Assembly: GCF_003018115.1 (NCBI RefSeq) | Contig: NZ_CP027457.1 | Reading direction: 5' to 3' (one strand) | DNA: 64,000 nucleotides | DNA from: Escherichia coli | GTDB lineage: Bacteria > Pseudomonadota > Gammaproteobacteria > Enterobacterales > Enterobacteriaceae | Part shown: one piece after another, positions 37,137-37,443 of the stretch | How the letters are laid out: each line of letters begins with the position of its first letter | Numbering within the stretch: position 1 is the stretch's first letter | Notes under the pieces: generated by a model | What the model was told of the DNA's origin: nothing | The model's database searches: none | What the model saw: only the letters and a program-made list of their open reading frames with translations | Program-made: the position numbers and the translations under genes

Positions 37137-37267
37137 GCCCGCGCTGGGAGACGCGGGCGGCAAGGAATAAACAATAAAACGTGAAGTAATACTTCAACTG
37201 GCGAATAATACCCGACAGTAATCACTCTGCGCAATAGCGTGGCCTTTTTCGAATTGCGGGCTGTAGT

Positions 37268-37443
37268 CTCCCTTCTGCCGGGTGTCCTGGTTGCAGATTT
37301 CTTCATGGGGTAGGGTTCGGCAGTTAAAGCAGCGATGGCGCTGGGGCGTCGTGCAACTGGCGTTGAGCTGGATACCGGGCGTTTTGAACAGACTGCGCAG
37401 GAAATCAGGGATGTATTTAGCGGGAGCGGTTTGCAGAAGTAAT
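37268..37443 (+). pseudogene. 3' fragment of a second DNA methyltransferase allele
   Basis: About 170 bp with high identity to 35750-35902 (methylase 3' end), with an in-frame TAG replacing a Ser codon; no N-terminal portion present. Confidence 0.6.

Follow-up and report, generated by a model that had tools for sequence, protein, structure and literature searches.

The window analysed here is a 64,000-nt stretch of Escherichia coli contig NZ_CP027457.1, and in reverse complement it matches the chromosome of isolate 07-4299 (NZ_CP027462.1) at 100%. A lambdoid prophage of this isolate resembles Shiga toxin (Stx) phages, and the analysis concerns its late 'moron' region. This region holds two accessory units in tandem, the first with a tolA-like gene and the second with an AraC-family regulator gene as cargo. 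The units meet between positions 37279 and 37280, where a truncated RNA gene, called E below, abuts the 3' end of a phage DNA methyltransferase (methylase) gene. We read this seam, at a probability of roughly 0.85, as the accessory regions of two related lambdoid prophages joined end to end by one illegitimate crossover, with the repeats later used for homologous recombination. The repeats are the outcome of the join and not its site.

A single breakpoint in all carriers examined

Left of the break, '...CTTCTGCC' derives from the spacer that precedes nanS-p, and right of it 'GGGTGTCCTGG...' derives from the methylase interior. Three-way alignments ('...CTTCTGCC / ATTGTCC' vs '...GTCGTCC / GGGTGACC', the slash marking the break) leave CC alone as microhomology at the junction. 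An earlier note on this DNA had proposed recombination between related prophages at short homologies. The first half of that proposal stands, in that the repeats bracket the seam of two lambdoid phages, but the short homologies do not explain the founding join, which had only CC to work with.

A scan of IMG/VR with the core of E returned about 120 phage contigs, and the 59 unique E variants among them were compared. In 45 the sequence runs on '...CTTCTGCC ATTGTCCTGTAACTTCCGG...' to the nanS-p ATG, and these 45 unique phage contexts define the normal, uninterrupted continuation across the equivalent of the break ('...CTTCTGCC / ATTGTCCTG...'). Six variants read '...CTTCTGCC GGGTG(T/G)CC(T/A)GGTTGCAGATTTCTTCATGGGGTAGGG...', which is methylase from the equivalent of 35749, and all six switch at the identical base. 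The remaining eight comprise seven copies of a second type (type 2), the kind found as copy 2 in the window, and one with an unrelated continuation. In the Stx2a phage L002, 70 nt separate the equivalent of the break from the nanS-p ATG downstream. Across the roughly 120 contigs the right flank is constant (STnc100-E-nanS-p, STnc100 being a small RNA [sRNA] gene), although the constancy of E before nanS-p is partly a sampling effect of having retrieved the contigs via E's own core. The left side holds a methylase or a paralogous AraC gene, plus tRNAs, and the cargo in between is stx2AB, tolA, a homologue of the second unit's 92-codon open reading frame (orf92), or nothing.

The junction is present in about 88 of 5,426 complete E. 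coli genomes, and 71 have the whole 7.8-kb layout. Two metagenome contigs from the Joint Genome Institute (JGI) have the identical breakpoint. Both the breakpoint and an in-frame TAG just beyond it are invariant in every carrier examined (complete genomes, viral contigs, and the two metagenome contigs), which argues for a single founding event.

The methylase remnant

From the break onwards, 163 nt (37280-37442) are methylase-derived. Their counterpart is 35749-35902, the final 154 nt of the resident methylase gene and the source-type sequence of this repeat. A repeat search of the window gave 82% identity over 152 nt without gaps (35747-35898 vs 37278-37429), and blastn gave 89.7% over 116 nt (37278-37393 vs 35747-35862, E=1.6e-40). 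For comparison, the best unrelated blastn matches in the 64-kb window have E values of at least 0.7. The TAG of the remnant lies at 37311-37313, where every intact allele collected has TCG, and its terminal TAA (37440-37442) is in frame. The RefSeq entry at 37278-37442, made by the Prokaryotic Genome Annotation Pipeline (PGAP), reads 'DNA methyltransferase; internal stop; incomplete; missing N-terminus'. Because only the last 163 nt are present, with an in-frame TAG and this annotation, 37280-37442 is a dead pseudogene remnant of a phage N6/N4 DNA methyltransferase (PF01555). At the nucleotide level the remnant matches many phage methylase alleles. It is a different allele from the resident gene, to which it is 82-90% identical, with the last ~70 nt diverged.

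The repeated flank as an RNA gene

The sequence left of the break is also repeated, upstream of nanS-p. Positions 37160-37234 and 39908-39983 are 80% identical over 76 nt (blastn, E=2.3e-13) with a 31-nt core at 94%, and TTGCGGGCTGT is common to both copies (37254-37264 and 40005-40015). A hairpin with a T-run of equivalent structure occurs at 37137-37158 and 39876-39898. The repeated unit extends into the STnc100 gene before each flank (37019-37138 vs 39247-39366, 83%). The earlier note had described the methylase 3' end as repeated with an internal stop and a ~125-bp flank as repeated before the nanS-p-like gene, and had named a lack of meaningful identity as what would undo this. The methylase repeat is borne out with refined limits, the flank repeat holds more weakly and as part of a larger unit that includes STnc100, and the E values of both are far beyond background.

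The strongest terminator-like site in a scan of the region is that of E copy 1 (stem 37137-37158, T-run 37130-37136). Minus-strand terminator-like sites occur at 37158-37137 and 39898-39876, the former tail to tail with the STnc100 terminator. The stem is kept through compensatory changes in three types (GCCCGCG/CGCGGGC, GCCCGCA/TGCGGGC, and AACCGCTC/GAGCGGTT), and its folding favours the minus strand in most variants. Each variant was folded singly, since a MAFFT alignment of the E types puts the type 2 3' arm one column out of register.

Tree et al. (2014, Mol Cell, PMC4104026) described convergent sRNA pairs between moron coding sequences and a conserved downstream open reading frame (ORF), with expression and Hfq binding of the convergent RNAs published for E. 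coli O157 Sakai. In Sakai prophage Sp4, EcOnc08 (1179938-1180010) and EcOnc21 (1180016-1180101) are minus-strand peaks of Hfq cross-linking and analysis of cDNA (CRAC); the EcOnc08 peak is 73 nt long, and a northern probe for EcOnc08/21/42 shows a band of ~271 nt (PMC4104026). We found the Sp4 order to be AraC - ileZ - argN - argO - STnc100 - E - ECs_1088, with a flank near-identical to window 37130-37279. The EcOnc08 and EcOnc21 peaks coincide with E in the current Sakai record, EcOnc08 beginning at the T-run, under a zero coordinate offset inferred from the positions of the published EcOnc05 and EcOnc08/21/42 probes. The northern probe matches 37204-37238 at 34 of 35 positions, where chance would give no match. 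By sequence homology, 37130-37279 is a predicted 3' part, truncated at the break, of an RNA gene related to the Hfq-bound EcOnc08/21/42 and part of a conserved RNA-gene module that normally lies upstream of nanS-p. The view of this flank as a recombination scar does not hold, and an annotation would better label it a truncated RNA gene than 'repeat/scar'.

A transcript start within nanS-p, ~271 nt before the terminator, would mean that copy 1 is without its promoter. A TTGCGC-N18-TATTAT motif inside E was considered as the promoter of a ~70-nt sRNA and dropped. Exactly this stretch is spanned by the published probe, whose signal is a ~271-nt RNA, and the start of the main transcript must therefore lie farther upstream. 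A shorter RNA is possible, by analogy with the 73-nt EcOnc08 peak.

The identification of E as AsxR, AgvB, or Esr41 was rejected: there were no meaningful Rfam matches, and the sequence is unlike the published AsxR, AgvB, and EcOnc03. For AsxR and AgvB (RF02703/RF02702) no Rfam match was obtained at E<=5 in window positions 36100-40200 or at E<=10 in phage L002. The EcOnc08/21/42-like class is absent from Rfam 15, and a full-text search of papers for E sequence strings found no occurrence. As a separate observation, the published NC_002695.1 coordinates of AsxR and EcOnc27 lie ~136 nt below those of the current NC_002695.2 (~1268630, Sp5, L138), while EcOnc05, EcOnc08, and EcOnc21 in Sp4 still fit. 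Mapping the 2014 sRNA table onto the current Sakai record therefore needs a ~136-nt correction at Sp5.

Origin of the join

Under the proposed crossover, a phage A with tolA as cargo would have been broken 70 nt upstream of its nanS-p start, and a phage B inside its methylase gene, 163 nt short of the end. The methylase-tRNAs-tolA-STnc100-E segment of A would then have been fused to the methylase 3' end-(AraC-orf92)-STnc100 array-E-nanS-p segment of B. Unit 1 of the product would consist of methylase, tRNAs, tolA, STnc100, and truncated E, and unit 2 of the methylase remnant, AraC regulator, orf92, STnc100 array, E, and nanS-p. Two such tandem units account for the methylase 3' end and STnc100+E each occurring twice, as diverged copies from different lineages.

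Over the stretch from the methylase region to just inside argO, unit 1 is 96.8% identical to the Stx2a phage LC567842. Its STnc100+E is 91% identical to the region after stx2B in phage L002 and ~67-80% identical to the unit 2 copy. This divergence between the units, with the different methylase allele, rules out a recent internal duplication and indicates a crossover between two different phages. The left-parent type exists: L007 (strain GN05476) and L064 have tRNA-tolA-STnc100-E-nanS-p without a second unit. Relatives of the kind proposed as a check on the earlier note, without intervening cargo, were also found (methylase-STnc100-E-nanS-p in L065/L092), as were relatives with other cargo (tolA-STnc100-E-nanS-p in L007/L064, and stx2AB in the same slot in L002). 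As a side observation, the methylase of L007 is truncated on its 5' side, beside a reversed ompC-like porin gene.

Several points weigh against this origin. An intact right parent, with the remnant-allele methylase followed by unit 2, was not found in the 5,426 complete E. coli genomes, INPHARED, IMG/VR, or the JGI metagenomes, so we infer its structure. The searches yielded only junction-bearing loci or the chimeric type of L134 described below, and phages of that type could be the right parent instead of a derivative. The AraC-orf92 block (37468-38756) may have been original to the right parent or may have been gained or lost later. E copy 1, the remnant, and the cargo are known in this strain from sequence alone.

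Later remodelling and alternative explanations

In L134, L135, and strain SMBL the methylase is intact and AraC-orf92-...-nanS-p comes straight after it, without tRNAs or tolA. Where the methylase of L134/L135 differs from the remnant, it has resident-type alleles at five of six positions (37301, 37312, 37320, 37325, 37331); at the sixth, 37285, it has an A, as do other intact alleles. Throughout 37332-37442 it is the same as the remnant. This allele pattern places a switch within the 41-bp identical block at 37332-37372. In our reading, homologous recombination at the duplicated methylase segment gave rise to these loci, with the tRNA-tolA unit removed or swapped; a crossover in the 41-bp block would leave an intact chimeric methylase followed by AraC, with no tolA unit. 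Exchange at duplicated homologies, as first proposed for the whole locus, thus does apply to these later events.

The strongest competing account keeps the same founding join and takes L134, L135, and SMBL as the surviving right parent, with the six differences of the remnant, including its stop, arising by decay. The layout of these loci is exactly that predicted for phage B, and they alone have the unusual last ~70 nt of the remnant within an intact methylase gene. All six L134-remnant differences, however, fall in the first 50 of 161 nt and five are resident-type, while the other 111 nt are identical; under random decay of the remnant such clustering has p ~0.0009 (calculated from the allele table). 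The bases specific to the remnant, with G at 37320, T at 37325, and A at 37331, turned up exclusively in loci that have the junction. The AraC and orf92 genes downstream in L134 are 99-100% identical to those of the window type. In its 3' part L134 is identical to the window type and not to the L008 type described below, which places it inside the AraC subclade. The arrangement is also rare, the chimeric methylase occurring in one of the 5,426 genomes (SMBL, there behind a different Q gene) against about 88 with the junction. We consider survival of the right parent in these loci unlikely, though it deserves serious weight, and favour their derivation from the joined arrangement.

Two further changes lie within unit 2. 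A subclade of about 10 genomes (L008 type) lacks 37468-38756, the 1,289-bp AraC-orf92 block. The edges of this indel share 'AT' alone, making it a second illegitimate junction. The L008-type remnant differs from that of the window at 8 of 161 compared sites and has the same breakpoint and TAG, so the junction is older than the L008 split. Relatives that are otherwise near-identical have between 1 and 4 STnc100 copies in unit 2, and unequal crossing-over would produce such changes. The order of events, we infer, ran from the join to these rearrangements.

STnc100 arrays clearly undergo unequal crossing-over, and the layout (methylase end ... STnc100-E, twice) resembles a tandem duplication. It could accordingly be proposed that methylase-to-nanS-p was duplicated by homologous unequal crossing-over within one prophage and that cargo was then replaced in each copy. 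This is very improbable. The junction has no homology past CC, short of the extended identity that unequal crossing-over calls for, and the copies are too diverged for a recent duplication (methylase 82-90%, STnc100+E 67-80%), copy 1 being 91% identical to a Stx2a phage.

Insertion sequence (IS) elements do strike the region in relatives. In L005 (RM10410) IS421 interrupts the methylase and ISVsa5 the AraC gene, and L109 has inside E what we take to be an inserted IS1 end. With the truncated methylase of L007, these further breakpoints suggest that the stretch from methylase to nanS-p is prone to repeated rearrangement. Delivery of the cargo by an IS or transposon, or by an integron-like site-specific cassette, with the repeats as its ends or target duplications, is nevertheless still harder to credit. 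No inverted repeats of at least 30 nt were found in 33000-43000, and there is no transposase or integrase ORF or Pfam match between methylase and nanS-p (35903-40095). One of the 'repeats' is the 3' end of a gene and the other an RNA gene, both with conserved roles elsewhere, and a 163-bp 'target duplication' at 82% identity is unlike a transposition signature. Chance similarity or an assembly artefact, in favour of which nothing was found, can be dismissed given the E values set against their background and the identical junction in dozens of independently assembled complete genomes plus viral and metagenome contigs.

Layout of the moron site

The order at such a site is usually Q ... methylase - tRNAs - cargo - STnc100 sRNA (plus strand) - convergent minus-strand RNA gene (E) - nanS-p. 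The window has the placement of the moron site of Tree et al. (PMC4104026), with Q upstream and nanS-p downstream (Table 1). The resident methylase is 96.8% identical to the Stx2a-phage region. The usual tRNA trio is ileZ-argN-argO, of which argO is reduced to a stub in the window. Homology to Stx2a phages (L002) stops at 36124, and this stub is the left edge, or left scar, of the tolA cargo, which sits in the slot held by stx2AB in Stx2a phages. The tRNAs had been counted as cargo in the earlier note; comparison of architectures shows them to be conserved backbone.

Table 1. Coordinates of features in and around the moron site (positions in the window)
Feature	Position	Strand	Support and remarks
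Antiterminator Q	32690-33355		Upstream end of moron site; PGAP, Pfam
Two small ORFs	Between Q and methylase
Resident intact DNA N6/N4 methyltransferase	34862-35902	+	PF01555 E=4e-44; PGAP coding sequence
tRNA-Ile2(CAU)	35942-36017	+	ARAGORN, Rfam
tRNA-Arg(TCG)	36027-36103	+	ARAGORN, Rfam
argO stub, ~9 nt (GCGTTGTTG...), remainder of third tRNA	~36117-36125	+	Sequence comparison
Cargo 1: TolA C-terminal-domain protein	36382-36810	+	PF06519 E=7.7e-23
STnc100 sRNA copy 1 (EcOnc05/27 class)	36917-37129	+	Rfam RF02076, 172 bits; right end of unit 1
E copy 1, predicted 3' ~150 nt of minus-strand RNA gene	37130-37279	-	EcOnc08/21/42 homologue; severed from rest of pre-nanS-p spacer at 37279
Junction	37278-37281, break 37279/37280		Pre-nanS-p spacer to methylase interior
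Methylase 3' pseudogene fragment	37280-37442	+	Other allele; in-frame TAG 37311-37313; last ~70 nt divergent
41-bp block identical to resident methylase 35801-35841	37332-37372	+	Allele table, alignment
Cargo 2: AraC-family regulator	37506-38231	+	PF12833/PF00165; PHROG matches for cargo 2: phrog_1450, phrog_2873
orf92, 92-aa ORF of cargo 2	38321-38599	+
STnc100 copies 2-5, tandem array, ~260-270-nt units	38889-39868	+	Rfam, 119-142 bits
E copy 2 (type 2) with intact spacer to nanS-p	39867-40095	-	Terminator stem 39876-39898
nanS-p-like SASA esterase, conserved ORF right of moron site	40096-42060	+	PF03629, PF08410, PF20350; PGAP
Holin and lysozyme genes	Beyond nanS-p

All five STnc100 copies match RF02076 (119-172 bits, Rfam cut-off 47), and each has its own conserved upstream stretch and intrinsic terminator. 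By eye, a sequence in copy 5 closely resembles the EcOnc27 probe complement. The tolA-like gene may act as a superinfection- or colicin-exclusion moron. Its predicted product is 142 aa long and has, by eye, a signal-peptide-like N-terminus in which ..ASLTTGC.. may be a lipobox; a promoter-like sequence is present at 36222-36251. Elsewhere in the same prophage, other Rfam matches occur at 28495-28679 and 29388-29562. These are isrK (51 bits, barely over threshold), an adjoining C4 antisense RNA (69 bits), and the sok antitoxin RNA (117 bits), the last implying a hok/sok module.

Significance

The locus is an ordinary case of phage mosaicism and no new kind of element. RefSeq already has the pseudogene, a description of the moron site and its sRNA pair dates from 2014, and mosaicism is textbook knowledge, so current understanding is not challenged. 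The value is modest: a base-resolved example of a multi-cargo 'moron' region in lambdoid or Stx-like prophages, with two stacked cargo units, in which one illegitimate join would have been followed by homologous recombination at the resulting repeats and conserved flanks that spread and remodelled the arrangement. It also indicates that the stx slot can house a TolA-domain gene. An unnamed Hfq-bound antisense RNA gene of the EcOnc08/21/42 class is predicted before nanS-p in nearly all of the ~120 contigs retrieved via its own core.

A bolder proposal, which we think improbable, is that the STnc100 and EcOnc08-like module serves as a portable right-hand boundary at which moron units stack in cassette fashion. 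Both units would then be functional and insulated by their own terminator pairs, and the remnant would be kept as the upstream regulatory region of AraC. If so, two diverged sRNA pairs, a TolA-domain protein, and an AraC regulator would all be maintained by selection. The identity of the last 111 nt of the remnant across the AraC subclade and L134 fits such constraint and equally fits recent common ancestry.

Comparison with known systems

The moron site of Tree et al. (2014, PMC4104026) is alike in lying after Q, a methylase or AraC gene, and tRNAs, and before the conserved nanS-p ORF. There too, a plus-strand sRNA of ~220-250 nt (EcOnc05/27, which are STnc100) faces an Hfq-bound minus-strand RNA, with variable cargo coding sequences to the left. 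The paper has single units, whereas the window has two in tandem, split by a methylase remnant, with a four-copy STnc100 array in the second. Positions 37130-37279 are near-identical to the sequence under the EcOnc08/21/42 peaks of Sakai Sp4, but copy 1 in the window keeps only ~150 nt and copy 2 is of the diverged type 2, ~75-80% identical. In Sakai Sp5 and Sp10 this slot is taken, on the same strand, by AsxR and AgvB (RF02703/RF02702), AsxR being in the Sp5 slot; they abut an STnc100-like terminator and have a homologous spacer on the nanS-p side. The body of these sRNAs differs in sequence, and E is not a member of either family.

The Stx2a phage LC567842 (methylase - 3 tRNAs - stx2AB - STnc100 - E - nanS-p) is collinear with unit 1 and 91-97% identical to it on both sides of the cargo. 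The window differs in having tolA in place of argO and stx2AB, and in its spacer being broken 70 nt before nanS-p.

The regulator of cargo 2, a prophage AraC-family helix-turn-helix protein, is likened by family and prophage location alone to the Psr/PatE class, the prophage-encoded AraC-like regulators of enterohaemorrhagic E. coli (reviewed in PMC10877973). It is 60% identical in amino acid sequence to Sakai ECs_1087, a paralogue in the methylase slot of Sp4. L040, L044, L115, L136 (O157 Sakai Sp4), and others likewise have a paralogous AraC-family gene in the methylase slot, between a 65-aa winged-helix-turn-helix-like ORF and the tRNAs. The regulator family thus occurs at two different positions of the same module.

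Lambdoid genomes are modular mosaics, and in the 'moron' model of Hendrix and Juhala rare illegitimate joins are followed by spread through homologous recombination in conserved flanks; PMC4104026 also cites this model. The locus described here agrees with this model in having one non-homologous junction in all carriers, reshuffled within the methylase and STnc100 repeats and found behind different Q genes. It differs from the model in nothing essential and is a well-resolved instance of it.

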